Below, piece by piece: positions 7,104-55,013 of a stretch of 64,000 nt of DNA. The notes under the pieces were generated by a model that worked only from the letters and a program-made list of their open reading frames with translations, was not told the DNA's origin and made no database searches. Origin of the DNA: Escherichia coli (GTDB taxonomy: Bacteria; Pseudomonadota; Gammaproteobacteria; Enterobacterales; Enterobacteriaceae); NCBI RefSeq assembly GCF_002854065.1, contig NZ_CP024147.1; one strand, given 5' to 3'. Position 1 is the stretch's first letter; each line of letters opens with the position of its first letter. The translations under genes and the position numbers were made by a program.

Positions 7104-7157
7104 GCATAGATAGATCCTGTAAAGGCAGATATTCTGCGTAATGTACGCCGCTAAAAT

Positions 7158-7517: not shown

Positions 7518-7789
7518 GGTTTTACCCCTATACTTAGTAACCAGTCACGCACGCTTTCTACAGCGCCTTTGTCGGTATCTGGCGACGGATGAGGCCGATG
7601 GAAACACGCAACGCTCATATTTAGTATGAACTTACAACGCGAACCTCTTCCTTCCTTAATTTCTCCGCCTAATGCTTTAACCAGTGACTCTATATCAGAC
7701 CACTTGATCCCTTGAGGAACAGGAGATTTAAATATTTGATCCAATGTATTTTTTTGTTTCTTCCGTAAAGCCTGTACCTTGGTTCTCAT
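7514..7789 (-). CDS. HicA-like mRNA interferase toxin
   Basis: 91-aa basic ORF; pattern LGGEIKEGRGSRCKF...FHRPHP...DKGAVESV matches the HicA G-x-GSH...HP signature; toxin-first gene order typical of hicAB. Confidence 0.55.
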   Translation of the reverse strand: MRTKVQALRKKQKNTLDQIFKSPVPQGIKWSDIESLVKALGGEIKEGRGSRCKFILNMSVACFHRPHPSPDTDKGAVESVRDWLLSIGVKP

Positions 7790-7798
7790 GGCATGTCC

Positions 7799-8989: not shown

Positions 8990-11721
8990 CCCTCCTGTTT
9001 TTTCAACAGCAGGATGCTTAAGCCCATCACCAGCGGTATGGCTATCAGCAACGGGATAAAAAGTTGCCACAAATCAGTCAGATCCAGCGCTTTCGAGAAC
9101 GTCCCGCGGGCGATAGTCAGAAAATGACTGGTCGGGTAAACCTCGCCGATCCAACGTCCCGGCCCTTCCAGCGAAGCTACCGGATCGATCATCCCGGAAA
9201 ACTGTGTCGCCGGGATCAACGTGATAATCGCCGTACCGAAAATGGCGGCAATCTGGCTTTTCATAAAGGTGGAGATCAGCAGCCCCATTCCGGTGGCGAT
9301 GATGATATACAGCAGCGCCGCCAGGGTGAGCGTCAGGAAACTGCCTTTATGCGGTACGCCAAACACAAACACCGACAGGCCGCAGAGCAGGAAAAAGTTC
9401 AGCATCCCCAGCGCGATGTACGGTAGCTGTTTGCCAAGCAAAAATTCGCTACGGGTGGTGGGAGTCACGTAAAGGTTGATAATCGACCCTAGTTCTTTTT
9501 CCCGCACCACGCTAAGGGCGCTTAGCATTGACGGGATCATCATCAGCAGAAGCGGGATCACCGCCGGAACAATCGCTGGCAGGCTTTTTACGTCCGGGTT
9601 ATAGCGATAGCGCGTCTCAATATTCATCAGCACGCTTTGGCTGGCGGGTGTGGATTGTCGGCTTGCCACATCCTGAAGCCAACTCTGGTGCATTGCCTGC
9701 ACGTAACCTTTTACCGTTTCGGCACGACTGGGCATCGCTCCGTCGATCCAGACGCCGAGTTCCACAGGCGTACCACGCGCGATATCACGCCCGAAATTTG
9801 GAGGGATCTCAATTGCCACCGTGATATCGCCCGCACGCATCCGACGATCAAGCTCGTCATAACTGGTAAGCGGCGGCTGTTCGATAAAGTAACGGGAACC
9901 GGAGAGGTTGAGCGTCCACGCCTGGCTACTGACGGTCTGGTCGCGGTCAAGCACCGCAAAGCGCAGGTTTTCCACATCCATACTGATGCCGTAACCCATT
10001 ATCAGCATCAGGATCACCGTTCCCATCAGCGCCAGCGTCGAACGGACCGGATCGCGGCGCAATTCCAGTGCTTCGCGCCGGCTGTAGCTAAACAGACGGC
10101 GCAGGCTAAATCCCTGGCGCGGCGCGTGTGTAGCATCGTGTATCACGGGAGGCGCTTCGGCTTCGTTGCTCTGTCCTGCCGCTTCCTGCAAATAGGCGAT
10201 AAATGCCTCTTCCAGACTGGCGGCTCCGCGTTTCTCAACCAGTTCCTGCGGTGTACCGCTGGCGAGCACTTTTCCGGCGTGCATCAGTGAGATACGGTCG
10301 CAGCGTTCCGCTTCGTTCATAAAGTGGGTGGAGATGAAGATAGTCACTTTGTCCTGGCGCGAGAGATCGACCATCAACTGCCAGAACATATCCCTCGCCA
10401 CCGGATCGACGCCAGAAGTAGGTTCATCGAGGATTAACATTTCCGGGCGATGAATCACCGCCACCGCCAGCGAAAGCCGCTGGCGAATGCCGAGCGGCAA
10501 TGACTCCGGCAGAACATCTTCAACGTCGTTGAGTTTAAAACGCTCGCTCATTTCAGCCACTCGCGCGGGAATTTCCGCTTCCGGGATGTGAAACAAACGG
10601 GCATGTAACTCAAGGTTTTGCCGCACGGTGAGTTCGTTATAGAGCGAAAACGCCTGCGACATATAGCCCACCCGACGGCGGGTATCGATATCTTTTGGAT
10701 CAACCGGTTGCCCAAATAGCCACGCCTCACCTTCGCTGGCGGGCAGCAGTCCGGTAAGCATTTTCATGGTGGTGGATTTACCGCAGCCATTCGAACCAAG
10801 AAAACCAAAAATCTCCCCGCGTGGAATGCGGAAATTAACGTGATCAACGGCAACGAAGGAACCAAAACGCATGGTCAGATCGCGCGCTTCGATGGCAATC
10901 TCTGCGTTTTCAGGTTGATACGGTGGGATCACTACCGCCTGATGCGCCTGGCGTTGTGCTTGCGGTAACAGATTAATAAATGCTTCTTCCAGCGTGGCGC
11001 TTTGCGTTTGCTGCCGCAGCTCTTCGGCGCTGCCAGTTGCCAGCACTTCTCCGGCATTCATCGCTACCAGCCAGTCGAAGCGTTCGGCCTCTTCCATATA
11101 GGCGGTGGCGACCAGCACGCTCATATTGCTCTGCCGCTGGCGAATACTGTCGATCAGATCCCAGAACTGGGCGCGGGAGAGCGGGTCAACCCCCGTTGTT
11201 GGCTCATCAAGAATCAACAGTTCCGGGTCGTGGATTAACGCACAGCACAGCCCCAGTTTTTGCTTCATCCCGCCGGAGAGTTTCCCTGCCGGACGATCGC
11301 GAAACGGTGCTAACCCGGTGCTGGTCAGCAGCTCATTAATTCGGACTTCCCGCTCCGCTTTATCGTGACCGAACAAGCGAGCGAAAAAATCGACATTTTC
11401 ATACACCGATAAGGTGTGGTAGAGATTTTTGCCCAGCCCCTGCGGCATCCAGGCGATGCGCGGGCAGACGTCGCGGCGATGCTTCGGGTCGCGCATATCG
11501 CCGCCCAGCACCATCACATTGCCCTGTTCAATGACGCGGGCACCGGAAATCAACGACAACAAGCTCGACTTCCCGACGCCATCCGGACCAATCAGCCCGA
11601 CCATACAGCGGGCCGGAATATCGAGTGTGATATTGTTCAGCGCAACGGTTTTTCCATAATGCTGGCTCACGCCCGCCAGTTGCGCGACAGGCGGGACGGG
11701 AACCAGTTCCAGATGCGTCAT
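8986..11721 (-). CDS. rbbA: ribosome-associated ATPase RbbA (tandem ABC ATPase domains fused to ABC-2 permease)
   Basis: 911 aa; two Walker A motifs ([18 protein letters not shown]), two signature motifs, C-terminal membrane domain. Confidence 0.9.
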
Positions 11722-12785: not shown

Positions 12786-13150
12786 AATCGACCCGCCATA
12801 ATCCCTGTAAGCAAACGACGCGTGTTACAACTGCCGCCGAACGACGTTCAGCGGATTCTTCCATCCGGGATAAGAAGGAAACGGCAAATACGACCAGCGC
12901 GCAGAGCATTGAGCGCCAACGGGGAAGGCTTAGTGAAAACGGGTAGTAATGTTGTCATCATCAGCATTCCTGGCCGTAAATGAAACACGCATACTCATAA
13001 GTGTGATCTATAAAACTGGCTGACAAAACGGTATCCATCCTGTTGGATAGCGTTTCACGCCTGTTCAGTTGCAGGAACAGAGCATTCCTTTTTACGTTTT
13101 ATCAACAGTCTCAACCAGATAGTAACATTAATATTCATGTTGTCTATGGT

Positions 13151-28291: not shown

Positions 28292-29647
28292 ATGACTAAA
28301 CACTATGATTACATCGCCATCGGCGGCGGCAGCGGCGGTATCGCCTCCATCAACCGCGCGGCTATGTACGGCCAGAAATGCGCGCTGATTGAAGCCAAAG
28401 AGCTGGGCGGCACCTGCGTGAACGTCGGCTGCGTACCGAAGAAAGTGATGTGGCACGCGGCGCAAATCCGTGAAGCGATCCATATGTACGGCCCGGATTA
28501 TGGTTTTGATACCACTATCAATAAATTCAACTGGGAAACGTTGATCGCCAGCCGTACCGCCTATATCGACCGTATTCATACTTCTTATGAAAACGTGCTC
28601 GGTAAAAATAACGTTGATGTAATCAAAGGCTTTGCCCGCTTCGTTGATGCCAAAACGCTGGAAGTAAACGGCGAAACCATCACGGCCGCTCATATCCTGA
28701 TCGCCACCGGCGGTCGTCCGAGCCACCCGGATATTCCGGGCGTGGAATACGGTATTGATTCTGATGGTTTCTTTGCCCTTCCTGCTTTGCCAGAGCGTGT
28801 GGCGGTTGTTGGCGCGGGTTACATCGCCGTGGAACTGGCAGGCGTGATTAACGGCCTCGGCGCGAAAACGCATCTGTTTGTGCGTAAACATGCGCCGCTG
28901 CGCAGCTTCGACCCGATGATCTCTGAAACGCTGGTCGAAGTGATGAACGCCGAAGGCCCGCAGTTGCACACCAACGCCATCCCGAAAGCGGTAGTGAAAA
29001 ATGCCGATGGTAGCCTGACGCTGGAGCTGGAAGATGGTCGCAGTGAAACGGTGGATTGCCTGATTTGGGCGATTGGTCGCGAGCCTGCCAATGACAACAT
29101 CAACCTCGAAGCCGCTGGCGTTAAAACCAACGAAAAAGGCTATATCGTCGTCGATAAATATCAAAACACCAACATTGAAGGTATTTACGCGGTGGGCGAT
29201 AACACGGGTGCAGTAGAACTGACACCGGTGGCAGTTGCAGCGGGTCGCCGCCTCTCTGAGCGCCTGTTTAATAACAAGCCGGATGAGCATCTGGATTACA
29301 GCAACATTCCGACCGTGGTCTTCAGCCATCCGCCGATTGGTACTGTTGGTTTAACGGAACCGCAGGCGCGCGAGCAGTACGGCGACGATCAGGTGAAAGT
29401 GTATAAATCCTCTTTCACCGCGATGTATACCGCCGTCACCACTCACCGCCAGCCGTGCCGCATGAAGCTGGTGTGCGTTGGACCGGAAGAGAAGATTGTC
29501 GGTATTCACGGCATTGGTTTTGGTATGGACGAAATGTTGCAGGGCTTCGCGGTGGCACTGAAGATGGGGGCGACCAAAAAAGACTTCGACAATACCGTCG
29601 CCATTCACCCGACGGCGGCAGAAGAGTTCGTTACCATGAGAGGTTAG
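28292..29647 (+). CDS. gor: glutathione-disulfide reductase
   Basis: 451 aa; FAD site GGGSGG, redox-active [14 protein letters not shown]-terminal HPTAAEE. Confidence 0.95.
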
Positions 29648-29683
29648 TGTAGAAAAACCATACCTACACCTTTGCAAATCTGG

Positions 29684-29713
29684 AAAACTGGCCGTAACAA
29701 GCCAGTTTTTTCT
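29684..29713 (+). terminator. gor rho-independent terminator
   Basis: AAAACTGGC / GCCAGTTTT stem with 8-nt loop then T-run. Confidence 0.6.
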
Positions 29714-29919
29714 TTATAAGAATGATAGTTGACACTCTTGTTTATGTGTATTCTATATAAAATATTGATACCATAATTAAACAGATGAGAATAAAAAAGC
29801 ATCAATTACTTGTTTATATAGAGAACCAATTCTTAGATTTTTCGCATGATTTGAAATAGAAATTGATGATGTATTCGCGTCATTGAATTCCATTTTAAAA
29901 TCTGTTTCTCTAGGTTTAT

Positions 29920-31164
29920 TTAAATATTTTTTTGTATGGTGTCCGGAGATAAGGATAAACTCTCATGCCTAGATAATGGGCGTTCATCTTCTTGTGTATA
30001 TATAACTTTATAATCTTTTGGTAAGTCTTCAGCCAGGCGACCGGAGAATAAAGTTAGTTCGTCAGTAGCCATCGTAAATAACCAAGCTTCCTGATTTATA
30101 CTCTGGTTAACTCGTAAAATTCTACCCAGTACCTGCCTGAAATAGAGCTCAGTTTTAACAGCGCTTAGATGACAGCAAACCTGAAGTCGAGGGATGTCTG
30201 TACCCTCACTGATCATGCCAACACTGACAATCCACTCGGTAGTCGCATGTCGATAATGGTCAATTTTAGAAATGGCTCTTCTATCGTGATATGTCACAAT
30301 AGTTGTAGTTTGGCCAAACTCGTTTTCTAAAATACTTAGTAGTTCATATGCATGCTCGACTGATGAAGCAACAACCAGACCACCTGCGTCAGGGTTAAAT
30401 TTTCTAATTTCACGAAGTTTTTCACATCCAGATTTGATTACATACCTCATTGCATCAGGATACCAAATTATTGATTGATATGAAGTTACTGTCTCATTCA
30501 AAAAGTCTGCTATAGAACTATAATTTTTCATTGTTTCATCGGATGAGATAGCCAAATTGCTACTATTTACAAGGACAATTTTTGGCTTACGACAAACGTT
30601 ATCTGCAATAGCTTCTCTGAGACCGTATTCATAGTCACAGCTAACCACTCCATCCGAATCAGTGTAATTTGAAAACACTATTGGTGTATTGTCTGTTCGC
30701 CATGGAGTTCCTGTTAATGCCAATGTGTAACTGACACATTGTTGAACTTGAGACAGTATTTCCCCGCCCCAGACATTTGCATTTTCCAATGAATCACCAG
30801 AGCAATGATGTATTTCGTCGAAAACAGCCAACACACGATGACGCTTCAAAGAATCCCAGAAACGTTTATCGAAATACATCAGACTATGATAAGTATACAC
30901 CGCGCCAACCGCACCAAAGTCTCCATCAAAACTTCTTTCCAGAATACGGGAAAAATTACTTTTTATAGATGAGACTACCGCTGTTGAGGGGGCAAAGCAT
31001 ATAACCAGATCAACCATATCGAGCTCAAGCATTCTTTTGGTGACTTCGGCCGCCATTACAGTTTTTCCAGCACCAGGACTTGCAAGACATAGAAAGTGCT
31101 GTAATCCAGATTGATACTTTGTTAGCGCAGCGGCAACGCATTCTTTCTGCCAATCTCTCAACAT
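29920..31164 (-). CDS. compact SF2 (DEAD/DEAH-type) helicase, function unknown
   Basis: 414 aa, low GC; motif I SPGAGKT, motif II FDEIHH, motif III LTGTP, motif VI QVLGRILR; no extra nuclease domain. Confidence 0.7.
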   Translation of the reverse strand: MLRDWQKECVAAALTKYQSGLQHFLCLASPGAGKTVMAAEVTKRMLELDMVDLVICFAPSTAVVSSIKSNFSRILERSFDGDFGAVGAVYTYHSLMYFDKRFWDSLKRHRVLAVFDEIHHCSGDSLENANVWGGEILSQVQQCVSYTLALTGTPWRTDNTPIVFSNYTDSDGVVSCDYEYGLREAIADNVCRKPKIVLVNSSNLAISSDETMKNYSSIADFLNETVTSYQSIIWYPDAMRYVIKSGCEKLREIRKFNPDAGGLVVASSVEHAYELLSILENEFGQTTTIVTYHDRRAISKIDHYRHATTEWIVSVGMISEGTDIPRLQVCCHLSAVKTELYFRQVLGRILRVNQSINQEAWLFTMATDELTLFSGRLAEDLPKDYKVIYTQEDERPLSRHESLSLSPDTIQKNI

Positions 31165-31280
31165 ACTCGATGCTCATCACTATGTTGACTAGACTGGCCC
31201 CCTGAATCTCCAGACAACCAATATCACTTAAATAAGTGATAGTCTTAATACTAGTTTTTAGACTAGTCATTGGAGAACAG

Positions 31281-31646
31281 ATGATTGATGTCTTAGGGCC
31301 GGAGAAACGCAGACGGCGTACCACACAGGAAAAGATCGCAATTGTTCAGCAGAGCTTTGAACCGGGGATGACGGTCTCCCTCGTTGCCCGGCAACATGGT
31401 GTAGCAGCCAGCCAGTTATTTCTCTGGCGTAAGCAATACCAGGAAGGAAGTCTTACTGCTGTCGCCGCCGGAGAACAGGTTGTTCCTGCCTCTGAACTTG
31501 CTGCCGCCATGAAGCAGATTAAAGAACTCCAGCGCCTGCTCGGCAAGAAAACGATGGAAAATGAACTCCTCAAAGAAGCCGTTGAATATGGACGGGCAAA
31601 AAAGTGGATAGCGCACGCGCCCTTATTGCCCGGGGATGGGGAGTAA
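31281..31646 (+). CDS. insC: IS2 transposase OrfA (InsC)
   Basis: Product [30 protein letters not shown]... HTH protein. Confidence 0.85.
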
Positions 31647-32509
31647 GCTTAGTCAGCCGTTGTCTCCGGGTGTCGCGTGCGCAGTTGCACGTCATTCTCA
31701 GACGAACCGATGACTGGATGGATGGCCGCCGCAGTCGTCACACTGATGATACGGATGTGCTTCTCCGTATACACCATGTTATCGGAGAGCTGCCCACGTA
31801 TGGTTATCGTCGGGTATGGGCGCTGCTTCGCAGACAGGCAGAACTTGATGGTATGCCTGCGATCAATGCCAAACGTGTTTACCGGATCATGCGCCAGAAT
31901 GCGCTGTTGCTTGAGCGAAAACCTGCTGTACCGCCATCGAAACGGGCACATACAGGCAGAGTGGCCGTGAAAGAAAGCAATCAGCGATGGTGCTCTGACG
32001 GGTTCGAGTTCTGCTGTGATAACGGAGAGAGACTGCGTGTCACGTTCGCGCTGGACTGCTGTGATCGTGAGGCACTGCACTGGGCGGTCACTACCGGCGG
32101 CTTCAACAGTGAAACAGTACAGGACGTCATGCTGGGAGCGGTGGAACGCCGCTTCGGCAACGATCTTCCGTCGTCTCCAGTGGAGTGGCTGACGGATAAT
32201 GGTTCATGCTACCGGGCTAATGAAACACGCCAGTTCGCCCGGATGTTGGGACTTGAACCGAAGAACACGGCGGTGCGGAGTCCGGAGAGTAACGGAATAG
32301 CAGAGAGCTTCGTGAAAACGATAAAGCGTGACTACATCAGTATCATGCCCAAACCAGACGGGTTAACGGCAGCAAAGAACCTTGCAGAGGCGTTCGAGCA
32401 TTATAACGAATGGCATCCGCATAGTGCGCTGGGTTATCGCTCGCCACGGGAATATCTGCGGCAGCGGGCTTGTAATGGGTTAAGTGATAACAGATGTCTG
32501 GAAATATAG
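31604..32509 (+). CDS. insD: IS2 transposase OrfB (InsD), DDE integrase-like
   Basis: 301-aa ORF in the frame overlapping insC 3-prime end, as expected for IS3-family frameshift expression. Confidence 0.85.
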
Positions 32510-33063
32510 GGGCAAATCCATTGACCAAGTACTTTTGTTAAAGCGGTAACTCTGCCAAGCAATTCTGCCGACTGATTTTTTGCCTGCTGATAAAGGTCCA
32601 TAAAACATATCTTCTTGGCTGGAAAACGTTCCATCAAAGATTGATATTCTTCTAGCTCGCCCAGAATCACAGCAAGTTTGGCTTCATGAATAACTTTTTC
32701 TTTTTCTATATCGACCAAGAAACGATCAGCCCCCGGTGCCGACGGTTTCATTTTTTCGGGCATAGCGATAAGCCGCGAATTCTTTGGCAACGCTCTTGGT
32801 ATGAAAATAGTTGAATGAAAACTTTCCGTTTTCTTATACACACTTCTGGACTTGCCACCACTACTCTCAATTTTATAGATGAAGCCCAGGGACTCTAACC
32901 GAAGAAGTTGTCGGTGAATGAATTTTCTAGCCTCAGTAACTTCTGCGTAGTCATCTGTAATCTTCAGCAAAGCATCCCTGAGATGGATAGCGCAGAACTC
33001 ATTAAAACCCATCTCAATCAATAACTTATACATATATGGATGCAACTTTACTGCAGATTTCAT
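32434..33063 (-). CDS. hypothetical protein with putative winged-helix region; native C-terminus displaced by IS2 (last 27 codons are IS2-encoded)
   Basis: ORF reads into IS2 at 32520; removing IS2 and one TTGAC copy restores ...VLGQHSDEHRVC-stop, ending 4 nt downstream of the helicase ATG. Confidence 0.55.
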
Positions 33064-33161
33064 TATAAAAAATCCAAAATAACAAACTTAGAATTGCTAA
33101 GTATACAGAAACCAACGAAACTTAGACAATCTCAGCACCCTAAGGCAATGATGATGAATAC

Positions 33162-33473
33162 GTGGCTCACCCAAACCCGATACCCGAGAGGCTCAAAGCG
33201 GCCAGAACAAAAGCTGGGATCACTCAGAAGGAATTGGGGATCCGAATTGGCATGGAACCCAGCTCGGCGAGTGGTCGTATGAACCATTATGAGAAAGGGA
33301 GACACACTCCTGACATTGATACCCTCAAGCGTATGGCTGATGAACTTGGGGTACCAATTAACTATTTCTTTTGCGAGAACGACATAACTGCAGAATTAGC
33401 ATGTCTGATAGCTAAAATGACTGAGCAGCAGCAGATTGAATTGATTGCTATGCTAAAGAAAAATCAATCTTAG
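33162..33473 (+). CDS. XRE-family helix-turn-helix transcriptional regulator
   Basis: 103 aa; HTH LKAARTKAGITQKELGIRIGMEPSSASGRMNHYEKG typical of Cro/C1-type regulators. Confidence 0.7.
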   Translation: MAHPNPIPERLKAARTKAGITQKELGIRIGMEPSSASGRMNHYEKGRHTPDIDTLKRMADELGVPINYFFCENDITAELACLIAKMTEQQQIELIAMLKKNQS

Positions 33474-33861
33474 ATTTTTCACAGAACTCATACCTGAATA
33501 ATATCAGGGTTTCTTAGATATCCTTGACCTGCGACGTATACGCCTCCTCGAAGGGTATCCGCAATTTCTTATCTCATGTATCAGCTACCACCCAAACCGA
33601 ATCTTCATCAGTTCCGGACGTCATGTAATAAACCATAATTCTGGAAATCAAGGAAGCAAATCTAATTGTGTAAATGACCCCGTTGTTTCAGTAATTGAGT
33701 AACATGCCATAAACGGGATTAATAAAGACTTCATTTTAATTTCAACGCCCTTATCAGCCTGAAGTAAAATATGACTTGCAGATCACGTGAATACCTAAGC
33801 TGGAAGAGTATCTTTTACTATTGCAGTCCAACGTGAGAAAACAACAAGTCAACAAGGATTC

Positions 33862-36474
33862 ATGATGCTCAGTAGCGAGTTTTTGCGCTTTTTTCAAACC
33901 TTAAACACAACAGAAGTCCCCAGTAATGTCAGGAAAATAGCGAATCTTGTGTGGGATAACCTAGATGATATAACCCCATTGGGCACTTCGCAGGGTCAGC
34001 GAGTCAGGCGCATTGTCTCTCTGGCACAGTCTGCATGGGATGCCCTCAGTACAGAAGTACAGCCACTACCAGAGCAGACCGCTGAACGCGTCTCCACGTT
34101 TAGTCGGCTGAGAAAGATATCTGTTGGACCATTTAGAGGGTTTGCAAAGCAAGAAGAATTTGATCTGGATTCACGTCTAGTGCTGATTTACGGCCCCAAT
34201 GGTACTGGGAAGTCAAGTTTCTGCGAAGCGCTTGAATATACATTACTGGGCAATGTGGCTGAGGCCGAAAGCAAGCGTTTCCGGAATCAAAACGACTATT
34301 TTAAAAATGCACATGTCAATCGGTTTTCTGTTCCAGAGATAATTGGTGTCGGAGATCATGGGCAGGATGTGTCGATTGAGAATAACGAAGCACAGTATCG
34401 CTTTTGCTTTGTTGAAAAAAATCGTATCGACAACTTTTCAAGAATCGCGGCTCTGGTCCCAACAAGGCAGACTGAACTTATCTCAACACTATTCGGGCTA
34501 GATAGTTTTAATGATTTTGTGCGAAATTTTACATCAGATATTGATGCCAGATACATCGATCTAACAGGCGTAAAAGCAGGTCAGTTGGCAGAAAAGCGCA
34601 AGTCTCTTCTGGCTGCACAGCAGCAATTGGCGACAGGTCAGGCTGCCCTGGAAGGGTTGGCATCAGAGGAACAGACACTGGCTTCTGTTTATCGTGAAGG
34701 CCTGTCTTACCAGCAGATGCTAGCTGAGTTAAAAGGGGATGAACAAAATATCGGAACCATCCGACAGCTTGAAACAGAGTTACAAACGCCACTTCCGAAT
34801 CAGAGTAGCCTGACATCTGCTATTTTGAACGATATAAGTAGCGCTGTTGAAACGGCACTTATAGATCTGGAAAGCAAGCAGAAGCAACTGGCAGAGGCAA
34901 GTCAGCAGGTTTCATATAAAAATTTATTTGAAGCAGTTGTCCAGTTACAGGGTACCAGCCCGGAACAATGCCCTGCATGCCATACCCCTCTTCAGCAAAC
35001 CGCCAAAAACCCCTACAGCCATGCCTGTGATGAATTGCTAAAGCTTGAGTTTCTGTCGACATTACAGGGAGAAATAACTCAGCTGGAAAAATTAATTGGC
35101 CAGTTGATGTACAGTGTTTCACAAGTAATCGGCACATGCTGTCAGTTTTTGCCACATGACAATGCTCTTGAAGTATTCCGAAATGAAAATGGCATCACTT
35201 TATGGCGTAATCTGCGGCAGCAAACAGGAGATGGCATAACTCCCTGGGCTCAGCTTGAAAAACAGGTGTGGCATCTGGAGGGAGAAGATAAAAAAATAGA
35301 GGAAGCAACTAAATTGCGAGAATCCCGTCAGCGGGATCTTGCGAGAATGCGTGAATCTGATCGCCAGATAACGATTTTGCAGACAAGAAGAGATACGATA
35401 GAAAAAACCATCTCTGCGGCTCAGTTGTTGATTGGCAACTTTGATACTGAAAACAGGCAGCTAATTGAAGAAGTTGCTCACGAAGAAGACATTGTAAGGA
35501 AAAACAAAGCAATTTCAGAAGCGTATTCCCGGTTCGTTTTACAGCTGAACGCCTATAAAGAGGGATTACCTCAGAGACTTGTAGCGAATCTTGGGGATCA
35601 CATTGTCACTCTCTACAACGCATTTAACCGTAATGACCCCCCGGGAGAAAAGCTAGCAGGTATCAAACTACCTCTGCTGCAGAATCAGCGACTGGAAGTA
35701 GCGTTTCAGAATAATCCAACGCAACTATTCGATGCCCTGCATGTACTTAGTGAGGGGCATGTACGCTGTATAGGGCTGGCTATTTTGTTGGCAAAAAACA
35801 TTAATGAACAGTGTCCACTTTTGATATTTGATGACCCGGTCAATGCTATTGATGACGATCACAGAGAATCGATTCGGAGAACGTTGTTTGAAGATGCTTT
35901 CTTTGCTGAAAAACAAATCATTCTGGCCTGCCATGGAGAGGAATTCTTCAAAGACATCCAGAATTTATTGCCAGCGCCGGTTGCCGCACAGTCCAAGACT
36001 TTCAGCTTCTTACCGCGTCTTGACGAATTGCATATCCGCGTAGATTTTAACTGCGCTCCCAGGAACTATATTATTTCTGCACGAGGGCATTATGAGCGTA
36101 ATGAGATTCGGGAGGCGCTTGCAAAATGCAGACAGTCACTTGAATCGTTGATGAAGGGGAGAGTCTGGCGATATGTAAATAAATATGGTGATGGTAATCT
36201 TAGTCTCAAGCTAAGGTCAGCAACGGCACCTATTGAGTTACGTAACTTGTCGGATCAATTGAAGAAACAGATCAATAAAGCTGAGTTCCGTGACCAAAAT
36301 AAAAACGCCGTATTCACACCAATTGATGTGTTAACTGGGCTAAGTGGAGAATCACGAGAATGGCGCTATCTAAATAAAGGTACGCATGAGGAAGACGGCA
36401 GGGCTGAGTTTGATCGAGCAACAGTAGAAACCATGATTTCTGCCCTTGAGGCGCTCGATCAGGCTGTGAGTTAA
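33862..36474 (+). CDS. SMC/Rad50/RloC-like ABC ATPase with central CxxC hook and uncharacterised C-terminal domain
   Basis: 870 aa; Walker A LIYGPNGTGKSS, about 500 aa Q/E/L-rich coiled-coil with EQCPACH midway, signature-like LSEGHVRCIGLA, Walker B/D-loop LLIFDDPVNAIDDDH, H-loop ILACHGEEF, then about 170 aa of unknown function. Confidence 0.65.
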   Translation: MMLSSEFLRFFQTLNTTEVPSNVRKIANLVWDNLDDITPLGTSQGQRVRRIVSLAQSAWDALSTEVQPLPEQTAERVSTFSRLRKISVGPFRGFAKQEEFDLDSRLVLIYGPNGTGKSSFCEALEYTLLGNVAEAESKRFRNQNDYFKNAHVNRFSVPEIIGVGDHGQDVSIENNEAQYRFCFVEKNRIDNFSRIAALVPTRQTELISTLFGLDSFNDFVRNFTSDIDARYIDLTGVKAGQLAEKRKSLLAAQQQLATGQAALEGLASEEQTLASVYREGLSYQQMLAELKGDEQNIGTIRQLETELQTPLPNQSSLTSAILNDISSAVETALIDLESKQKQLAEASQQVSYKNLFEAVVQLQGTSPEQCPACHTPLQQTAKNPYSHACDELLKLEFLSTLQGEITQLEKLIGQLMYSVSQVIGTCCQFLPHDNALEVFRNENGITLWRNLRQQTGDGITPWAQLEKQVWHLEGEDKKIEEATKLRESRQRDLARMRESDRQITILQTRRDTIEKTISAAQLLIGNFDTENRQLIEEVAHEEDIVRKNKAISEAYSRFVLQLNAYKEGLPQRLVANLGDHIVTLYNAFNRNDPPGEKLAGIKLPLLQNQRLEVAFQNNPTQLFDALHVLSEGHVRCIGLAILLAKNINEQCPLLIFDDPVNAIDDDHRESIRRTLFEDAFFAEKQIILACHGEEFFKDIQNLLPAPVAAQSKTFSFLPRLDELHIRVDFNCAPRNYIISARGHYERNEIREALAKCRQSLESLMKGRVWRYVNKYGDGNLSLKLRSATAPIELRNLSDQLKKQINKAEFRDQNKNAVFTPIDVLTGLSGESREWRYLNKGTHEEDGRAEFDRATVETMISALEALDQAVS

Positions 36475-36607
36475 TATATGTAAAGTGGTCTATAAAATTG
36501 GCCACAACATGAGAATTACTGTTCGTTGGTTCCTGGCACAGAGCGTCTGTCAGATTTAGTTTAGCTCTGTGTCATACCAGTGGTAGCTCAAGTCGCGGCT
36601 AATGCAA

Positions 36608-37336
36608 TTAATCACTGAATACCAACGAATCTAATACACCTTGTCCACTATGAACTCCTCCTTCAACTGACTCTGCTGATTTGCTACGGATCAAATACCC
36701 AGCAAAACTGTGATCAGCGCTAGATGCATTGTTACCTATCTGGACGGAGAACATTCCTAGTTCGCTGACCAGATCAGTAACCTGATATAACTCCCCTTTA
36801 CGGACAACCAGAGAAGGTGTAGCTCGCGGGACAGGATGTATCCGACGCATGAACGACCAGGATTGATATTGCAGCGGGTCAAGTCTTGCCAGTTTTAACT
36901 GGATATCAGAGCCAAACAGACAATGCCCACCCCCTTCGCCCTGGTTTTTGAGAACCCATGAATCAGAAGGAGACTCTTTTACAATGCTGATTGTATCAGG
37001 GCTAACAGGAAGCATTTCGCCCAACACCATTTTTATGATATCAACCTCTTCCGGCTTCAGTCCAAAAGCAATCAGTTCATCGCACCCCAAATGAGAGAGC
37101 AACATTTGTACTCGCTTACTTGTCGCAAGTTGCTGAGCGACTGTTGCATTCACCGCAACTCGGTGCTGCTCAATCAATACTCGCGTGGCCATTAGCGTCT
37201 GGCAACACTCCTTCTCATTGAGACTGGCGGCTTCATAATCTGAGTATTGATATCCGGCACGTAAGTAAACAGAAGTAGTATGGGTGTATGAACTTGTCAT
37301 TGTTTTGACATTTATCAAATATATTCGATTATGCAT
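36608..37336 (-). CDS. hypothetical cysteine-containing protein, divergent from arsR
   Basis: 242-aa ORF (alternative start at 37300); no motif recognised. Confidence 0.4.
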   Translation of the reverse strand: MHNRIYLINVKTMTSSYTHTTSVYLRAGYQYSDYEAASLNEKECCQTLMATRVLIEQHRVAVNATVAQQLATSKRVQMLLSHLGCDELIAFGLKPEEVDIIKMVLGEMLPVSPDTISIVKESPSDSWVLKNQGEGGGHCLFGSDIQLKLARLDPLQYQSWSFMRRIHPVPRATPSLVVRKGELYQVTDLVSELGMFSVQIGNNASSADHSFAGYLIRSKSAESVEGGVHSGQGVLDSLVFSD

Positions 37337-37393
37337 ATGTGTTGTTGATTTTCATCTCCGCAGGAGATATCGTTACCTAAACGAACAGGAGGA

Positions 37394-37747
37394 ATGATGT
37401 CGCTTACTTCCCTACAACTCTTTAAGAATCTGTCTGATGAAACACGTCTGGGTATTGTTCTCATACTCAGAACTATGGGGGAGTTGTGCGTATGTGATCT
37501 TTGCACTGCACTTGATCAATCACAGCCTAAGATCTCCCGGCATCTGGCTATGTTGCGAGAAAGTGGGATTTTGCTTGATAGTAAACACGGTAAATGGGTT
37601 CATTACCGGTTATCCCCACACATTCCTTCATGGGCTGCACAGATTATTGAGCAGGCCTGGTTAAGCCAACAGGACGATCTTCAGGCCATCGCCCGTAAAC
37701 TGGCTTCAGTCAACTGCACTAACAGCAGTAAGGCTATTTGTATTTAA
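37394..37747 (+). CDS. arsR: arsenite-responsive repressor ArsR
   Basis: HTH plus As(III)-binding ELCVCDLC motif. Confidence 0.9.
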   Translation: MMSLTSLQLFKNLSDETRLGIVLILRTMGELCVCDLCTALDQSQPKISRHLAMLRESGILLDSKHGKWVHYRLSPHIPSWAAQIIEQAWLSQQDDLQAIARKLASVNCTNSSKAICI

Positions 37748-49412: not shown

Positions 49413-50756
49413 ATGATCTTCTTTAGAGTTGAGCTAAAAGGAGTCGAGGCGATGGCCAGGATAATCCAATCAGCCGGTATCAATCATGGTGCAACAGCAA
49501 AAATAATTTCCGATTCAATAGATTATAACTCCGGCATACATATTGCAGGATTACCAACGCTATATAATAAAGATGGTCATTTTGTAGAAATTGTAAATTT
49601 GTGGTTTTTGGATTTGATAACCGTTAAGAGGCTAGAGGATATTAGTTCTTCAGCCAGAGCAATTCTTCGTTACTGGTCTTTTCTAGAACGAGAAGAGCTT
49701 ACATGGAGTCATTTTCCTCCAGTGAAACGCCTGAAACCCACATACCTTTTCCGTAGCAACGACTTGTTAAAAGCAGTTAAAGAGGGAAGACTGGCGTACT
49801 CAACTGCAAATACTTATATGGGACATTTAGTTCAGTTTTACATCTGGGCAATTGAAAATCATCATCTTGTCATATCAAGTGAAAAAGAAGCTCCCTTTAC
49901 TATTGAGTTTGTTAAGCGTAACAATAGAGGCCTGCTGGCACATCTTCGCCCAATGATCAGTGTGCAAACGAGCGATTTACGTATCCGCGTTCCTAAAGTT
50001 ACAAACGCCGAGATCCAGTCATTAACTCCTTTAACTCAAGATCATCTTTCCTTACTATCATTCAACTTAAGCCATCAATCTGTTGAATTTATGTTGATGA
50101 CTTTACTGGCCTGTAAAAGTGGTTTGAGACTTCGTGAAGCATGTAGCCTCACAATTGAGGCTTTATCTCAAGCTTTGCCCGCCAACGAATTAAAGCTACG
50201 CTATATGATCAACATTTGGCCCCACAATGGTGTTGATACAAAATTTAGAAAAAAAAGAAATATTGAAGTCCCCTGGCCTCTACTAAACGCATTACAACGC
50301 TACTCGCTGTCAGAAAGAAGGCAAAAAAGACTTTCAAAATTACAGACAAAAATAGCCATTCCCTCAATTTCGGAAAAGATTAAAGAATCCCACAATAAAG
50401 CATCTCGATTCGAACCTCTTTTTATCAGTCAGCAAGGAAATTGTATCCAGCCCGAAGTTCTAAATGCAAGGTGGGTTGCATTTAGAAATGAACTTGCCAA
50501 AAAAGAACCTAGTTTTCGTTATCGTTTCCACGACCTCCGATGTACCTATGCCACATACAGACTTCAAGACCTGCTGGATAGCAATCTCTCAGAAGGGGAT
50601 GCCCTAGACTGTCTTATGGGATGGATGGGACACAATAACGAAAGAACCACATTTAAATATATCCGCTACTTGAAGAAAAACGAGATGCTCAAGTGTGCTT
50701 TTTCGCTATTAGACTCAGTGATGGATAATGCAATAAGGGATAATTTAAATGACTGA
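49413..50756 (+). CDS. tyrosine site-specific recombinase (first of trio)
   Basis: R...HxxR...H...Y signature: LRLREACSL, FHDLRCTYATY, GHNNERTTFKYIRY. Confidence 0.8.
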   Translation: MIFFRVELKGVEAMARIIQSAGINHGATAKIISDSIDYNSGIHIAGLPTLYNKDGHFVEIVNLWFLDLITVKRLEDISSSARAILRYWSFLEREELTWSHFPPVKRLKPTYLFRSNDLLKAVKEGRLAYSTANTYMGHLVQFYIWAIENHHLVISSEKEAPFTIEFVKRNNRGLLAHLRPMISVQTSDLRIRVPKVTNAEIQSLTPLTQDHLSLLSFNLSHQSVEFMLMTLLACKSGLRLREACSLTIEALSQALPANELKLRYMINIWPHNGVDTKFRKKRNIEVPWPLLNALQRYSLSERRQKRLSKLQTKIAIPSISEKIKESHNKASRFEPLFISQQGNCIQPEVLNARWVAFRNELAKKEPSFRYRFHDLRCTYATYRLQDLLDSNLSEGDALDCLMGWMGHNNERTTFKYIRYLKKNEMLKCAFSLLDSVMDNAIRDNLND

Positions 50757-52472
50757 TAAAATCCCTCAATCCAGACTCGGCCATGAAATACTACTGGAGG
50801 TTACAGATGGTGGAAATCGTTCTAAAACACTAGATTTCAATCGCTACAACTATTTATACTTCCCCACTCGAAATAAAATAAATAGAGGTCACAGTACATT
50901 TCAAGATAGATCAGTCAGCGCTGAATCGTTATATGTAGCATTCAGAGATTCAGACTACTCATCAGCCACAAAATATTATCTTTTTGAATACCTCAGGCAA
51001 TATATTGTATTTTGCGACAAGTGTCACCATCCCATTTTCACTAATGAATCCGTGCAGGCCTACTGTGATCTCCTTATTTATAAAAATAAATCAGGAATTA
51101 TTTTGAATAGTACTTATACTGCTATCATTAGTGCCACAAAACGCTTATTCGTTATGCTTGACTTACCTGGGCGGTGGTTTGATGAATTACCAACCTTAGG
51201 AAAGTCACAGGCACAGCCCTATAAGGCCTATAGTGACAATGATTTAAAAAAACTACTCCCTTTACTGAGGATATTTTTCAAGCAAATTTCCAATAAGTTC
51301 CTACAAGACCCCGCTTTGTATCTTTCTCAAGGTAAGAATGAAACTGATATGTTTTTCAGGTGGAATGGTAAAATATATGCAGTATATGGTAGTGTCGGGC
51401 AACTAATGGCTTCTGCTGTATATCTACTGTCTTACTATACATGGGCAAACACAAATACATTACTTTCTCTTGAAAGACCAGACATATGTGAAAGTAATGT
51501 AAATGGAGAATGGTACCAAATGCCAGCATTTAAGCGCCGGGCATTTAGAGTCATCACTATTCAGATCGGTGCCCACGACCAGATCAACATTCCAAAGTAT
51601 TCAATGGAATTTTTCAACCAACTTCTAAAAGTCTCAAAAGCTATTTCAGTTGAAAGTAACTTACTTTTTCAGTCCGGTTCATGTAATCGCATCACCCCAT
51701 TATCAGCGGTCCACTTACAAAATTTCAACAGTTTTCTCAAAAAGAACTTTAGATTAACTGATGATAAAGGACTTAGCTATCACCTGTAATATCGAGATTT
51801 CGTGCTACTGGTAGTCAATTTACGCAATTGCATTACTCTCATACACATAGTGCATCGCTATTAGGAAATTCACCGAAAACAACTCGCAAGCATTATTCAG
51901 AAGGGAATGAATACCAAAATCAGTCAATGCTCCAGGACTCTGTCTCTGTTTTTGCAGACAAGGCGGTAAATGGCGGGAATATAGAGACGTCTAAAAAAAG
52001 AATAAAAAGTGAACTTAATGTTGAGATTTTAACATATGAAAGTATGCTTAAAATGAAATCTCCACCAATGCGACAGGCCCACGGCAGTTACTGTAAAGAT
52101 CCATTCGGGGAGCAGGCTAAAAAGTTCTTGCTACGCGCCCAACGTCACGATTTGCTTTCTACAGAAAAATTTGCTTGCTCAGATCTACTGATGTGTTTTT
52201 CCTGTCCTCATCAAGTTGTGATAGCTGAACCTACTGATATTTGGTGTTTGCTGAGTTTTAAAGAATGCATAGAAGAGAGTATTTACAAGCATGTCAATCA
52301 CACTCATTTCCATAATAACTATGACTCTGTGTTGTCGGCAATTGAAAAAATTTTAATGAGTATTGATAAAAAAATACTTTCAAGTGCAACTCAAAAATTT
52401 CTCGATGAGGGTCCTCACCCTTTATGGAGAGACCAGTCATTTCTATATCCATATAGCAATAAGGATACATGA
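50749..52472 (+). pseudogene. tyrosine recombinase (second of trio) interrupted by a frameshift within the catalytic region
   Basis: ORF 50749-51789 ends ...DDKGLSYHL-stop; the overlapping frame continues ...LSPVISRFRATGSQFTQLHYSHTHSASLLGNSPKTTRKHY, carrying the box II and Tyr motifs; frames overlap only in 51777-51789. Confidence 0.6.
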
Positions 52473-54271
52473 TGAAAAAAGATACATTAAAAATTTATTT
52501 ACCCGATAGTGTAAATGAGAATCAGTGTCCTGAGGCTTGTGATGTAATATTTCTTCATAGAAGGCAATGCTGGGGGGAGTTAAATGACATTCCTATTTGC
52601 ATTGATAATAAGGGGAATGTAGTCGCCAGGTTTGGCGATATCATATGGAATTTGGAGCCTCTGGTCGTAACTAAAAATGCAACACATAGGCAAATTAATT
52701 TCTCAGTACTAAAGTCCCATCCATCTCTCTTATATGAGATGAAACTCATTTGCTACGGTTGGCTGTTCACAAAGAACATGCAATACAGTTTACCGACTAA
52801 AATATCAACAATCATCGGAAGAGCATCGGGTCTGAAGATGAGTTATAAATATCTGATGTCAAATTCCCTGGATAGTATTTCTCGTATATGCGAACCTGAA
52901 ATATGGGGGAAATATCTGAACTTTCTTGAAGAACAAAAAAAGAGCGCAGGGACTTTAGTTCATATACTGTGTTCCCTTCAGCAAGCCTATCTACTATTTC
53001 CATGGATGGGACTTGATTACCGAGAAATTAAATTCAGCCCTACGAATTTAAGTAAAAAAATATGTCGAGATGAAGCAATTGAGAGAGCACAAACCCTGGC
53101 TATACCGGAAGATATCGCAGATAAATTATTACACTTTGCAGTAAACCTCGTAGATACCGCATGGCAATACAGGGAGCAACTGGGTGAAACAGAACGACGC
53201 ATTCAGGAAAACTATAAGTTAGGAGAACAGGCGGTTCAAAACAAAATAATATCGGGCCAATGGAAGTGGCTAACGACTGAAGAAGGTACCCCTGCTTTTA
53301 GACACCATTTTGCCAAAGAAGCGGCCCGCTTCTTCCCCTTTAACCCAGCTGAAATCATATCTGAACTTCTCACTGACTACCCTGATCGCCCGACAGATGC
53401 TAATGGTTCCTGGTGGCATTTACAGCGAGGCAATCTTACATCAGCCTGTTTTGTTTGCTGTGCTGCATTCTCAGGTATGCGGGAAAGTGAACTTTATGAG
53501 CTAACATCTGAGAGTTATTACAATGCTGTTTACAGCGGCAGAACCTTTCATTTTCTAAAAGGCAAGACTCATAAAATGGGGGAAAGGCATACTGAGTGGG
53601 TTGTTGCCCCTATCGTTCAAAAAGCAGTCGAAGTTATGAGTGCCTTAACGAAACACTTAAGAGAGTATTTGCTACAAGATGCTTCAACTGCACGGGATAA
53701 AGAACTCGCGCAATGCCTTTGGCTTTCCCAGGGGCAGCGCTCAACTCAACCCAAAAGAATATCATGCTGGGCCCTACGCCTCACAAATTTCTCCAAATAC
53801 TCTGGTGCAATCGTTTCTGAAAAAGATTACGCAGAATGCCTTCGTTCCAACCCGAATAGTCAGGAAAAGATTAAAAATCATGTTCACATTGGAAAACACT
53901 GGGCGCTTTCCCCTCATCAGTTCAGAAGGACTCTTGCCTTTTTTACAATAAAAAATAGATTGGGAAATGCGATAGCCATCAAACAGCAATTCAAGCACCT
54001 CTATCTCCAGATGTCTGAGTGGTATTGCGAAGGTGGTATCCCTTCGCGCCTGGATGAAGTCGAGGCCGACAAAGAATTGCAGAAAATGATAGATACAGTA
54101 AGCAATGAGCAAATTACCCAAAAATACTGGTCATGGTTTCATGGTACCGAAACACTTTCAGGGAGTCATGGCAAAGATATTCTGAAGCTCAGGGATGATT
54201 TGCCAATCATGTTTAGAAGTTGGGAGAAATTATACAAATTGGTGAAAGATAAAAGGATCACGCTACACTGA
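52469..54271 (+). CDS. tyrosine site-specific recombinase (third of trio)
   Basis: 600 aa; FSGMRESELYEL, SPHQFRRTLAFF (HxxR), C-terminal KHLYLQMSEWY; 4-nt overlap with preceding gene. Confidence 0.75.
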   Translation: MMKKDTLKIYLPDSVNENQCPEACDVIFLHRRQCWGELNDIPICIDNKGNVVARFGDIIWNLEPLVVTKNATHRQINFSVLKSHPSLLYEMKLICYGWLFTKNMQYSLPTKISTIIGRASGLKMSYKYLMSNSLDSISRICEPEIWGKYLNFLEEQKKSAGTLVHILCSLQQAYLLFPWMGLDYREIKFSPTNLSKKICRDEAIERAQTLAIPEDIADKLLHFAVNLVDTAWQYREQLGETERRIQENYKLGEQAVQNKIISGQWKWLTTEEGTPAFRHHFAKEAARFFPFNPAEIISELLTDYPDRPTDANGSWWHLQRGNLTSACFVCCAAFSGMRESELYELTSESYYNAVYSGRTFHFLKGKTHKMGERHTEWVVAPIVQKAVEVMSALTKHLREYLLQDASTARDKELAQCLWLSQGQRSTQPKRISCWALRLTNFSKYSGAIVSEKDYAECLRSNPNSQEKIKNHVHIGKHWALSPHQFRRTLAFFTIKNRLGNAIAIKQQFKHLYLQMSEWYCEGGIPSRLDEVEADKELQKMIDTVSNEQITQKYWSWFHGTETLSGSHGKDILKLRDDLPIMFRSWEKLYKLVKDKRITLH

Positions 54272-54310
54272 ACTCTGCATAGTTATTGTAAGAACGGATA
54301 TGATTGTGAG

Positions 54311-54565
54311 ATGGAAGGGGTCATTAACCCAGCATTTTGTATAGATTGTAGTACAAATGGTAGTATTATTGATGGCGAACAAGCTGCCTGGTGGAAAAGC
54401 AAACATAATGCACTGATCTTATATTTGAGTGAAAACGCAGAGATATCTACTGCTGTTTATATTCACTGCCTAACACAAATTCATGCAGCTGAGAAGGTAA
54501 TGTCTGATTTTTCAATAGAATACATTCCATTTCAGCCCGAAATAGAGATCAGAACAGATGAGTAA
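54311..54565 (+). CDS. small hypothetical protein downstream of recombinase trio
   Basis: 84-aa ORF, 8-nt overlap with next ORF. Confidence 0.4.
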   Translation: MEGVINPAFCIDCSTNGSIIDGEQAAWWKSKHNALILYLSENAEISTAVYIHCLTQIHAAEKVMSDFSIEYIPFQPEIEIRTDE

Positions 54566-55013
54566 AAAAGACAACACACTGCTACTGCTTGAGGCAGCTC
54601 TGGACCGTATTTTACGCGGTGAATCACAGAAAATAGCACCATCCCGAAAACTCAGTGTTCGGGCGGTTGAGGTAGAATCAGGACTCGGTAATGGTAGTGC
54701 ATATTACCACACTAAAATTATCGAAAAAATCAAACAAATAAAAAACTCTTCCATAACGACAGGAAGTTTAAATCATCAACATCGAAAATGGAAACAAAAA
54801 GCACTTAAGGCTGAAAAATTAAAAAACAAATTCCGGGATGAAAACATTGCATTAAAATTATTAAATTCACAAATTGCCGCAGATCAGTATAGACAAATGA
54901 GCACTTTAAGAGATGCCTTACAACGTATATTGGAACTCGAAAAAACAATTGAAGAATTGAACATTGAACTGGTTGAGACCAGACGTAAAAACATTACTCT
55001 ATTTAAGCAATAA
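54558..55013 (+). CDS. small coiled-coil hypothetical protein, possible recombination accessory factor
   Basis: 151-aa ORF, basic and coiled-coil rich, translationally coupled to the preceding ORF. Confidence 0.45.
   Translation: MSKKDNTLLLLEAALDRILRGESQKIAPSRKLSVRAVEVESGLGNGSAYYHTKIIEKIKQIKNSSITTGSLNHQHRKWKQKALKAEKLKNKFRDENIALKLLNSQIAADQYRQMSTLRDALQRILELEKTIEELNIELVETRRKNITLFKQ

Follow-up and report, generated by a model that had tools for sequence, protein, structure and literature searches.

A candidate RloC-like defence protein in Escherichia coli: a Rad50-like ABC ATPase with a predicted zinc hook and a C-terminal HEPN domain

RloC, characterised in 2008 as a wobble-nucleotide-excising anticodon nuclease with an ABC ATPase-HEPN layout (PMC2610378), provides the precedent for a DNA-dependent ATPase that switches on a nuclease (PMC3458546, PMC3874168). 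Its catalytic triad is defined as Arg-X3-Glu-X36-52-His, often with a Ser before the His (PMC2610378), and in EcoPrrC the residues R320, N321 (Asn or Gln in homologues), E324, R349, N352 and H356 are essential for nuclease toxicity (PMC3025547). ABC-HEPN families were catalogued computationally in 2013 as PrrC/RloC/APECO1_4465 and ERFG_01251 (PMC3710099). Here we describe an 870-amino-acid (aa) protein encoded in a stretch of 64,000 nucleotides from E. coli contig NZ_CP024147.1 (the whole stretch is called the window below). A first-pass annotation, made from the sequence alone, had joined its gene to a neighbouring gene for an XRE-type helix-turn-helix (HTH) regulator as a candidate undescribed defence module, and both open reading frames (ORFs) are indeed found at 33162-36474.

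Sequence and structural models show that the protein consists, in this order, of an N-terminal helical domain, a split ABC head joined by a coiled coil with a CPxC hook, and a HEPN domain. Its gene travels by itself, as a cassette, between islands, plasmids and the ends of prophages, and is found beside known defence systems. These domain assignments are much more secure than the biology, for which the reading we favour, and hold to be probable, is that the ATPase is a single-polypeptide RloC-like defence or abortive-infection protein that does not require the XRE gene.

Domain architecture and conserved residues

Conservation was counted in an alignment of 83 relatives with 26-81% identity to the E. 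coli protein. Translation confirmed the motifs picked out by the first-pass annotation, namely the Walker A sequence GPNGTGKSS (residues 111-119), CPAC (370-373), LSEGH (629-633), LLIFDDP (653-659) and the H-loop histidine H691. Twelve residues in these motifs (G111, N113, G114, G116, K117, C370, P371, S630, G632, D657, D658 and H691) are invariant (83/83), and C373, E631 and H633 are kept in 82 of the 83 relatives, which, judged from the alignment, is conservation far beyond chance; T375 in the hook loop is kept in 77. A full-length AlphaFold model built on the same alignment (pLDDT 90, pTM 0.70) has two head halves linked by long helices with the hook loop between them (residue limits in Table 1), so that the split Rad50/SbcC-like ABC head with a central CxxC hook is borne out by the invariant motifs and the model together. 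The best Foldseek matches in the PDB were Rad50, the cohesin and condensin SMC heads and Salmonella Lamassu LmuB. By analogy with Rad50 and RloC, the CPAC hook would bind zinc (PMC2610378).

Ahead of the head lies a helical domain with the conserved pattern EF..F..L...LANL...GTA.G.R, in which R47 is invariant. With this domain the E. coli protein gave no Pfam match at E<=10 and other members of the family gave chance-level matches only; a PDB sequence search with the domain found nothing meaningful, and the same was true of a PADLOC search with the isolated N- and C-terminal pieces. The RefSeq start of the gene is the second Met, at 33865, which gives a protein of 869 aa.

The C-terminal 170 residues or so had been taken for a possible effector domain with no recognisable motif. 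The effector idea gained support, but the supposed lack of a motif did not hold, since the last 135 residues adopt a predicted HEPN fold with conserved R757, E761, N838 and H842. A model of residues 715-870, built on 57 sequences (pLDDT 88), has the all-alpha, up-and-down helical bundle that marks the HEPN superfamily, and its first helix gave weak sequence matches to DUF7014 and to the family STM4504/CBY_0614, of which CBY_0614 has been published as the exemplar for HEPN proteins of the AbiJ type (PMC3710099). The E. coli protein reads R757-Q-S-L-E761 and R835-Y-L-N838-K-G-T-H842. R757, N838 and H842 are invariant in the 83 relatives, E761 is present in 82 of them, and W769, W834, G840 and F850 are nearly invariant. 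HEPN proteins have a catalytic Rx4-6H motif ahead of their last core helix, and the E. coli protein reads R835-x6-H842; across the family the histidine is constant (83/83) but R835 is found in only 18 of 83 relatives, and the constant partner of the histidine is N838 (83/83). A HEPN profile found nothing below E 0.1 among PDB sequences, and the HEPN alignment gave weak DUF7014 matches only in Pfam. On sequence and model evidence, the C-terminal domain is thus assigned as a HEPN domain with putative catalytic-type residues.

When the last 170 residues were searched against 1.84 billion representatives, at least 221 clusters (50% identity) were found at E<=1e-3, in Proteobacteria, Firmicutes, spirochaetes and others. 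Since the full-length matches are 853-920 aa long and the shorter ones look like fragments from short contigs, this C-terminal domain appears to occur essentially only in the ATPase-hook-HEPN architecture.

A HEPN fold need not be a nuclease, and the domain could instead bind RNA or nucleotides or serve in dimerisation, in which case the protein would be an SMC/Wadjet/Lamassu-like DNA machine, for example for plasmid restriction or for island or plasmid maintenance, with partners possibly encoded elsewhere. This would fit the best PADLOC and Foldseek matches of the ATPase part (LmuB, Rad50 and SMC), the poor family-wide conservation of R835, the canonical HEPN Arg, the existence of non-catalytic HEPN families (PMC3710099) and the frequency of the family on conjugative plasmids. 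We nevertheless regard it as unlikely, given that R757, E761, N838 and H842 are conserved down to 26% identity and match residues essential for the PrrC nuclease, and that the neighbourhood has no conserved partner of the LmuA, LmuC, kleisin or nuclease kind.

Table 1. Coordinates in the window of the ATPase gene, its domains and associated features.
Feature	Residues	Position	Strand	Remarks
XRE / C-protein-like HTH gene		33162..33473	+	ORF, 103 aa; outside the ATPase cassette, island backbone
Leader moving with the ATPase gene, 93 bp		33769..33861	+	blastn 79-80% identity to cassettes in unrelated contexts
ABC/Rad50-like ATPase - zinc hook - HEPN fusion gene (predicted)		33862..36474	+	ORF, 870 aa; RefSeq WP_032288318.1, 'AAA family ATPase'
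N-terminal helical domain	1-61	33862..34044	+	Model helices 2-13, 21-32, 34-37, 43-61; followed by lower-confidence linker 62-81
ABC head, N-terminal half	82-230	34105..34551	+	Pfam AAA_23, AAA_15 and SMC_N matches; Walker A at 34192-34218
Ascending coiled-coil arm	237-364	34570..34953	+	Long model helices; best Foldseek matches Rad50, SMC, LmuB
Hook loop	365-383	34954..35010	+	CPAC at 34969-34980
Descending coiled-coil arm	384-574	35011..35583	+	Model helices 384-429, 461-530, 532-574
ABC head, C-terminal half	598-730	35653..36051	+	LSEGH 35746-35760; LLIFDDP 35818-35838; H691 within 35926-35940
C-terminal HEPN-fold domain (predicted)	736-869	36067..36468	+	RQSLE (R757, E761) 36130-36144; RYLNKGTH (R835, N838, H842) 36364-36387

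Cassette borders, the XRE gene and the island

The ATPase gene belongs to an island that occupies about 26 kb between gorA and dinQ and whose low GC content confirms the earlier description of this DNA as low-GC cargo (local GC 0.40-0.46, against about 0.55 in the flanking core genes). The functional pairing of the XRE and ATPase genes did not survive closer comparison, and the XRE gene turned out to be part of the island backbone. It has 84% nucleotide identity to plasmid pWL297, and this homology stops immediately past the XRE stop codon, at 33474. Homology to the ATPase cassettes of three unrelated contexts (blastn, 79-80% nucleotide identity) starts at 33769-33776 and ends at 36474-36477, which leaves 294 bp of unique sequence between the end of the backbone and the start of the cassette. 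Because of these borders on both sides, we define the ATPase as a one-gene cassette with a 93-bp leader. The leader presumably carries its own promoter and ribosome-binding site; a promoter consensus scan found nothing in 33769-33861 above shuffle expectation, and promoter and terminator counts were at or below that expectation. A weak terminator-like hairpin follows the XRE gene at 33493-33508.

On pWL297 (8591-10953), a trio of helicase, VspR-like and XRE-like genes sits beside an integrase module with the ATPase absent; in the cargo downstream, gene fragments and another HTH gene come first, and a CBASS operon follows at about 2 kb from the trio. A phmmer search of all ORFs within 6-8 kb of the ATPase gene in 21 other loci of the family found no XRE homologue, and none of the called neighbours directly upstream of the ATPase in seven independent contexts is an HTH gene. 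These data bear on the possibility that the two genes form a module in which the XRE protein acts on the ATPase like a C-protein or an antitoxin, by repression or neutralisation. The genes are adjacent and in the same orientation with a gap of 388 bp, the pair recurs in near-identical copies of the island, the XRE protein matches the PADLOC Control_protein model for restriction-modification (RM) systems (4.9e-26), and a VspR homologue in VSP-1 represses neighbouring defence cargo (bioRxiv 10.1101/2023.04.04.535582). The occurrence of the trio without the ATPase, the homology borders, the loci without an XRE homologue and the hairpin after the XRE gene all argue against such a module, which we consider very unlikely. 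A role of the XRE gene as an RM controller (C) protein was also rejected: the island has no restriction endonuclease or methyltransferase, and the conserved companions of the XRE gene are instead the VspR-like gene and the helicase.

The intact, 187-aa form of the VspR-like protein carries the Pfam domains VspR_N and VspR_C. Since VspR represses CBASS cargo in V. cholerae VSP-1 (bioRxiv 10.1101/2023.04.04.535582), the helicase/VspR-like/XRE trio (29776-33473 in the window) looks, from its gene content, like the conserved backbone of a VSP-1-type integrative element with a cargo slot just after the XRE gene, a slot that appears to be filled by the ATPase here and by CBASS in one relative (pWL297). 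It is conceivable that the backbone regulators act locally on the cargo, without this being a conserved partnership, and the slot should be a useful place to find further cargo.

From left to right, the island contains a DEAD/DEAH helicase, IS2, the 209-aa VspR-like gene, the XRE gene and the ATPase, followed by a glutathione-synthetase-like fragment, two arsenic-resistance clusters and an integrase with several hypothetical genes. IS2 (transposase ORFs 31236-32509; region 29920-32509) sits between the helicase and the VspR-like gene and replaces the 3' end of the latter, which encodes 209 aa here, against 187-189 aa where the gene is intact. Owing to a 1-bp indel, the helicase ORF has 414 aa in the window and 462 aa in RefSeq NZ_CP182139.1, and the backbone module is probably defective in the window strain. 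At the right end of the island (about 49450-55010, low GC), RefSeq annotates a site-specific integrase and then five hypothetical genes directly before dinQ; homologues of these right-end genes flank the helicase module on pWL297, and some survive in strain 100416.

The glutathione-synthetase-like fragment is a 242-aa ORF (36608-37336, minus strand) between the ATPase and arsR that matches the eukaryote-type glutathione synthase TIGR01986 (1.1e-29) and Pfam GSH_synth_ATP, and covers the C-terminal half only (263-471 of 473) of the TIGR01986 model. Such a match is unusual in E. coli, whose own glutathione synthase, GshB, is unrelated to the eukaryote-type enzyme. Possibly the gene is truncated, or else the ORF is an ATP-grasp piece that stands by itself and belongs with the arsenic cluster. 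An Rfam search over 29600-37500 gave no match. In the core region of the window, the RefSeq annotation points to two more low-GC patches, one at about 13000-17000 with two paralogous DUF4049 genes (yhiJ and its neighbour, GC 0.33-0.38) and one at about 7150-7790 with a HicA/HicB toxin-antitoxin pair downstream of nikR.

Distribution, genomic company and proposed mode of action

The ATPase is rare and patchy in E. coli: the intact 5-kb region around it occurs in 1 of 5426 complete E. coli genomes, and a second complete genome has the same island with the ATPase cut by IS3. The window is 100% identical to E. coli CUWW06 over the 5-kb query and differs from it by one mismatch and one 1-bp indel over 18.4 kb. 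Outside E. coli the family is large, with 953 homologues at E<=1e-5; among the 120 matches listed almost all are 868-887 aa long, and the source names among the matches listed are only 'AAA family ATPase', 'SMC', 'RecF' or 'DndD'. AFDB matches come from Proteobacteria, Bacillota, spirochaetes and Desulfobacterota. The family was found on 33 plasmids, of which 23 are conjugative; NDM-carrying Klebsiella and Vibrio plasmids are among the conjugative ones. About 11 full-length copies are on IMG/VR contigs, and no homologue was found in GenBank phage genomes.

No neighbour of the ATPase gene is conserved in the seven independent contexts, and a match to a known or candidate defence system in PADLOC lies no more than 2-3 genes away in six of them. 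In an E. coli context, the ATPase separates Shango SngB (1e-186) and SngC (3e-279) from a Mokosh-like helicase, MkoC (3e-64). The Buttiauxella copy is accompanied by a type IIG RM enzyme (3e-239), the Methylovorus copy by AbiU (2e-35) and an hsdS fragment 17 bp upstream, and the Cellvibrio copy by a Tin-like protein (7e-15) encoded by the second gene downstream. In Vreelandella, a Cap4-like nuclease/PDC-M68A (4e-24) accompanies the ATPase at the cargo end of an element that resembles a satellite and has a Toprim_3 primase and DUF927. In the seventh context, from Morganella, the ATPase lies between icd and a prophage integrase.

Interruptions by IS3-family elements (locus L002, 11342-13230; plasmid NZ_AP022109.1) and truncated or split ORFs of 211-728 aa were seen in E. 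coli, Salmonella and Klebsiella. Both are consistent with counter-selection of an intact, costly gene.

Taken together, the sequence data make a single-gene anti-phage suicide system plausible. By analogy with RloC, PrrC, Rad50 and LmuB, the protein would dimerise through the zinc hook and through ATP-dependent engagement of the heads. The head and coiled coil would act as a DNA sensor that responds, most likely, to free ends or to phage DNA that is damaged or replicating, with stimulation of the ATPase, and the ATP-driven conformational change would bring together or free two HEPN domains to give an active RNase. In HEPN enzymes the active site is normally a composite one, shared between the two halves of a dimer. 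The activated domains would then cut cellular RNA, most likely tRNA anticodon loops, and the resulting stop in translation would abort the infection. The N-terminal domain may serve as a sensor or as an autoinhibitory lock.

A related scheme, which we rate as possible yet doubtful, would have no descent from RloC. A Lamassu/Rad50-type DNA-end-sensing ATPase would have captured a HEPN RNase of its own and a hitherto unseen N-terminal domain for a phage cue or for gating, and the resulting widespread, single-gene immune sensor-effector would be convergent with RloC but have another trigger, another RNA target or both. If this convergent scheme were true, the family would offer a minimal one-protein model of an SMC-like machine that couples DNA sensing to effector release. 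If instead the RloC-like reading is correct, one compact protein would unite a Rad50/SMC-like DNA sensor with an RNase under its direct control, and it would be an easier handle than multi-subunit Lamassu or Wadjet on how coiled-coil ABC ATPases turn DNA recognition into immune output. Defence inventories probably miss this family, because PADLOC 2.0 has no model for it, and it is a good, cheap candidate for validation.

Relationship to other ABC ATPases and to RloC

The ATPase part of the protein has its best PADLOC matches in two LmuB models (3.3e-26 and 6.5e-26), and Foldseek likewise relates it to LmuB in Salmonella LmuACB (9hqx/9hqu, E about 1e-8), a coiled-coil ABC ATPase of phage defence. 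Lamassu differs in that it needs a separate LmuA effector and, in type II, also the kleisin LmuC, whereas the putative HEPN effector is fused in cis here. No LmuA- or LmuC-like gene stands beside the ATPase in the window or in seven other contexts, and the neighbouring 209-aa and 242-aa proteins match no PADLOC family.

A housekeeping role in DNA repair, as an ATPase of the SbcC/RecN/RecF/SMC type, was also considered. GenBank and UniProt names such as 'chromosome segregation protein SMC' and 'RecF', the automatic Gene Ontology term for double-strand-break repair on plasmid records, and weak NCBIfam matches to RecF, Rad50 and SMC could be cited for it, but the NCBIfam scores are far below the curated cut-offs (RecF 37 against 172 bits, SMC 18 against 567 bits) and the intact allele is found in a single complete E. 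coli genome. The HEPN fusion and the position in a low-GC integrative island also speak against it, and, as the first-pass annotation had observed, there is no SbcD-like gene nearby, either among the ORFs of the window or in the RefSeq annotation. A neighbouring SbcD/Mre11 gene was not seen anywhere. No conserved syntenic nuclease partner and no vertical inheritance was seen, and we regard the housekeeping-repair reading as effectively refuted. Identity with the Rad50/SbcC repair ATPase itself was rejected on its NCBIfam score (28 bits against a cut-off of 700) and the lack of an adjacent SbcD-like nuclease.

DndD and PbeC are universally linked to a DndE/PbeD gene and have a CxC hook (PMC10853773). 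Identity with them was also rejected: the matches are weak (1e-10), the hook is CPAC and no DndE-like neighbour is present in the contexts examined. The PADLOC candidate PDC-S06 is likewise a single-gene ABC ATPase of about 850 aa, whose signature and Walker B motifs have the same position (620-694 in the 858-position profile, residues 626-701 here), but the match is limited to these head motifs (E 1e-10 to 1e-6, about 75 residues) and leaves the rest, including the C-terminus, unmatched; by sequence, PDC-S06 is a different family. A PHROGs search returned a generic SbcC-like match only.

ERFG_01251, one of the families catalogued in 2013, is described with a classical MNT-type HEPN domain (PMC3710099) and as also fused to a HEPN/Toprim-NTD1 domain of about 240 aa, which the E. 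coli protein does not have; the two families may be identical. On IMG/VR contigs (L036 5764-8616 and L038 5800-8619), we further noticed a sister family of 939-950 aa with an N-terminal extension, an ABC head, a CP[AL]C hook, LSEGH and a DD Walker B. It has about 24% identity to the E. coli protein, and the similarity fades in the HEPN region; its C-terminus reads 'CRIWFES ... NQEHHAF', that is R-x3-E and N-x2-H-H, and is followed by an extra C-terminal coiled segment. From these sequences, the sister family suggests a wider superfamily of hook-bearing ABC-HEPN proteins.

PrrC, like this family, combines an ABC ATPase N-domain that has a 'DD' Walker B with a C-terminal HEPN nuclease (a putative one here), and R757, Q758, E761, R835, N838 and H842 of the E. 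coli protein are the pattern counterparts of all six essential EcoPrrC residues, the common pattern being R-[N/Q]-x2-E ... R-x2-N-x3-H. With its variation, the pattern on the side of the ATPase is R757-[Q/R]758-x2-E761 ... (R835)-x2-N838-x3-H842. PrrC is, however, only 341-416 aa long, without coiled coil or hook, against 870 aa with a coiled coil here, and it is always found inside a silencing type Ic hsd locus, whereas no hsd genes are present in the window island or flanking the ATPase gene.

The RloC-like architecture claimed by the first-pass annotation stood up well. Both RloC and the E. coli ATPase are single polypeptides with an ABC head split by a coiled coil with a CxxC zinc hook (predicted in the latter) and a C-terminal HEPN-type domain (a nuclease in RloC, a putative one here), and 870 aa falls within the RloC range of 658-897 aa. 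RloC, too, is mostly without linked partner genes, on mobile elements and sometimes beside RM genes. The comparison sequence for RloC was Table S1 entry 60 of PMC2610378, a 746-aa protein from plasmid 1 of Shewanella sp. ANA-3, which reads 'RRIIE ... WINDGSH' and shares with this family the 'DDP' Walker B, the 'LSEG' signature and the 'CP.C' hook, as well as Arg-x3-Glu and Asn-x-Gly-[Ser/Thr]-His. In an hhalign comparison of full-length alignments (Prob 95%, E 2.5e-8), the match between the two families covers the descending coil, the second half of the head and the first of the HEPN helices, with R757/E761 opposite the R-x3-E of RloC. On the Shewanella plasmid (9580-20386), the genuine RloC lies beside a type I RM operon and is followed, in the same orientation, by an HTH gene of 103 aa. 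Since no similarity could be detected between the product of this gene and the window's XRE protein, their equal length is a coincidence.

The first-pass annotation had been unable to confirm an RloC/PrrC triad in the C-terminus. Its elements R757-x3-E761 and T841-H842 are present and conserved, but the Glu-to-His spacing is 80 residues here and 70-85 in the family, against 36-52 in RloC, and inspection of the sequence found no alternative R-x3-E 36-52 residues ahead of H842. The longer spacing is due to an insert of about 40-50 residues with two extra predicted helices. Profiles of the HEPN domain alone gave no significant match to RloC, with E 0.31 for a single sequence and 0.07 for a 119-sequence alignment, and deletion of the insert in four registers did no better than a reversed-sequence control. 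Homology of the nuclease domain to that of RloC therefore rests on the fold and short motifs only.

These results can be set against the view that the protein is a bona fide RloC orthologue, a member of a characterised family and hence nothing new. The common layout, the shared motifs and the full-length hhalign match are in its favour, and Table S1 of PMC2610378 contains several 'orthologs' of 850-890 aa with a 'poor ACNase (anticodon nuclease) triad' that could belong to this family. On the other hand, BLASTP against the Shewanella ANA-3 orthologue aligns the Walker motifs only. True RloCs have AAA_13 as their main Pfam family and bear the JGI name 'wobble nucleotide-excising tRNase', whereas the AAA_13 match here is weak and partial (9.6e-6 over 104-549 and 0.09 over 649-716, with the C-terminus unmatched) and this name was never seen among the homologue matches listed. 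The ATPase part scores best against LmuB, Rad50 and SMC, and at the N-terminus the family has some 60 additional residues that form a conserved helical domain, followed by a linker. The copy on a plasmid of Polaromonas JS666 is absent from the 2008 RloC list, and the JS666 genome was public by 2006. Orthology with RloC in the strict sense thus seems quite improbable to us.

How much of this is undescribed, as had been claimed, needs qualification: fusions of an ABC ATPase to HEPN are known (RloC, PMC2610378; catalogue, PMC3710099), and the protein is not the categorically new system implied earlier, but we found no name, no dedicated PADLOC 2.0 model and no published experiment for the family, and a literature search found no mention of this protein or of close accessions. 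What is new is a large, coherent and unnamed family, whose N-terminal domain is additional, whose HEPN domain is enlarged and whose ATPase stands nearer to LmuB/Rad50 than to RloC. The BLASTP result, the AAA_13 match, the triad spacing, the HEPN-only profiles and the N-terminal domain place it outside the RloC family as defined. In keeping with the reading we prefer, we therefore class the E. coli protein, from its sequence, as a distant relative of RloC that would work like it.

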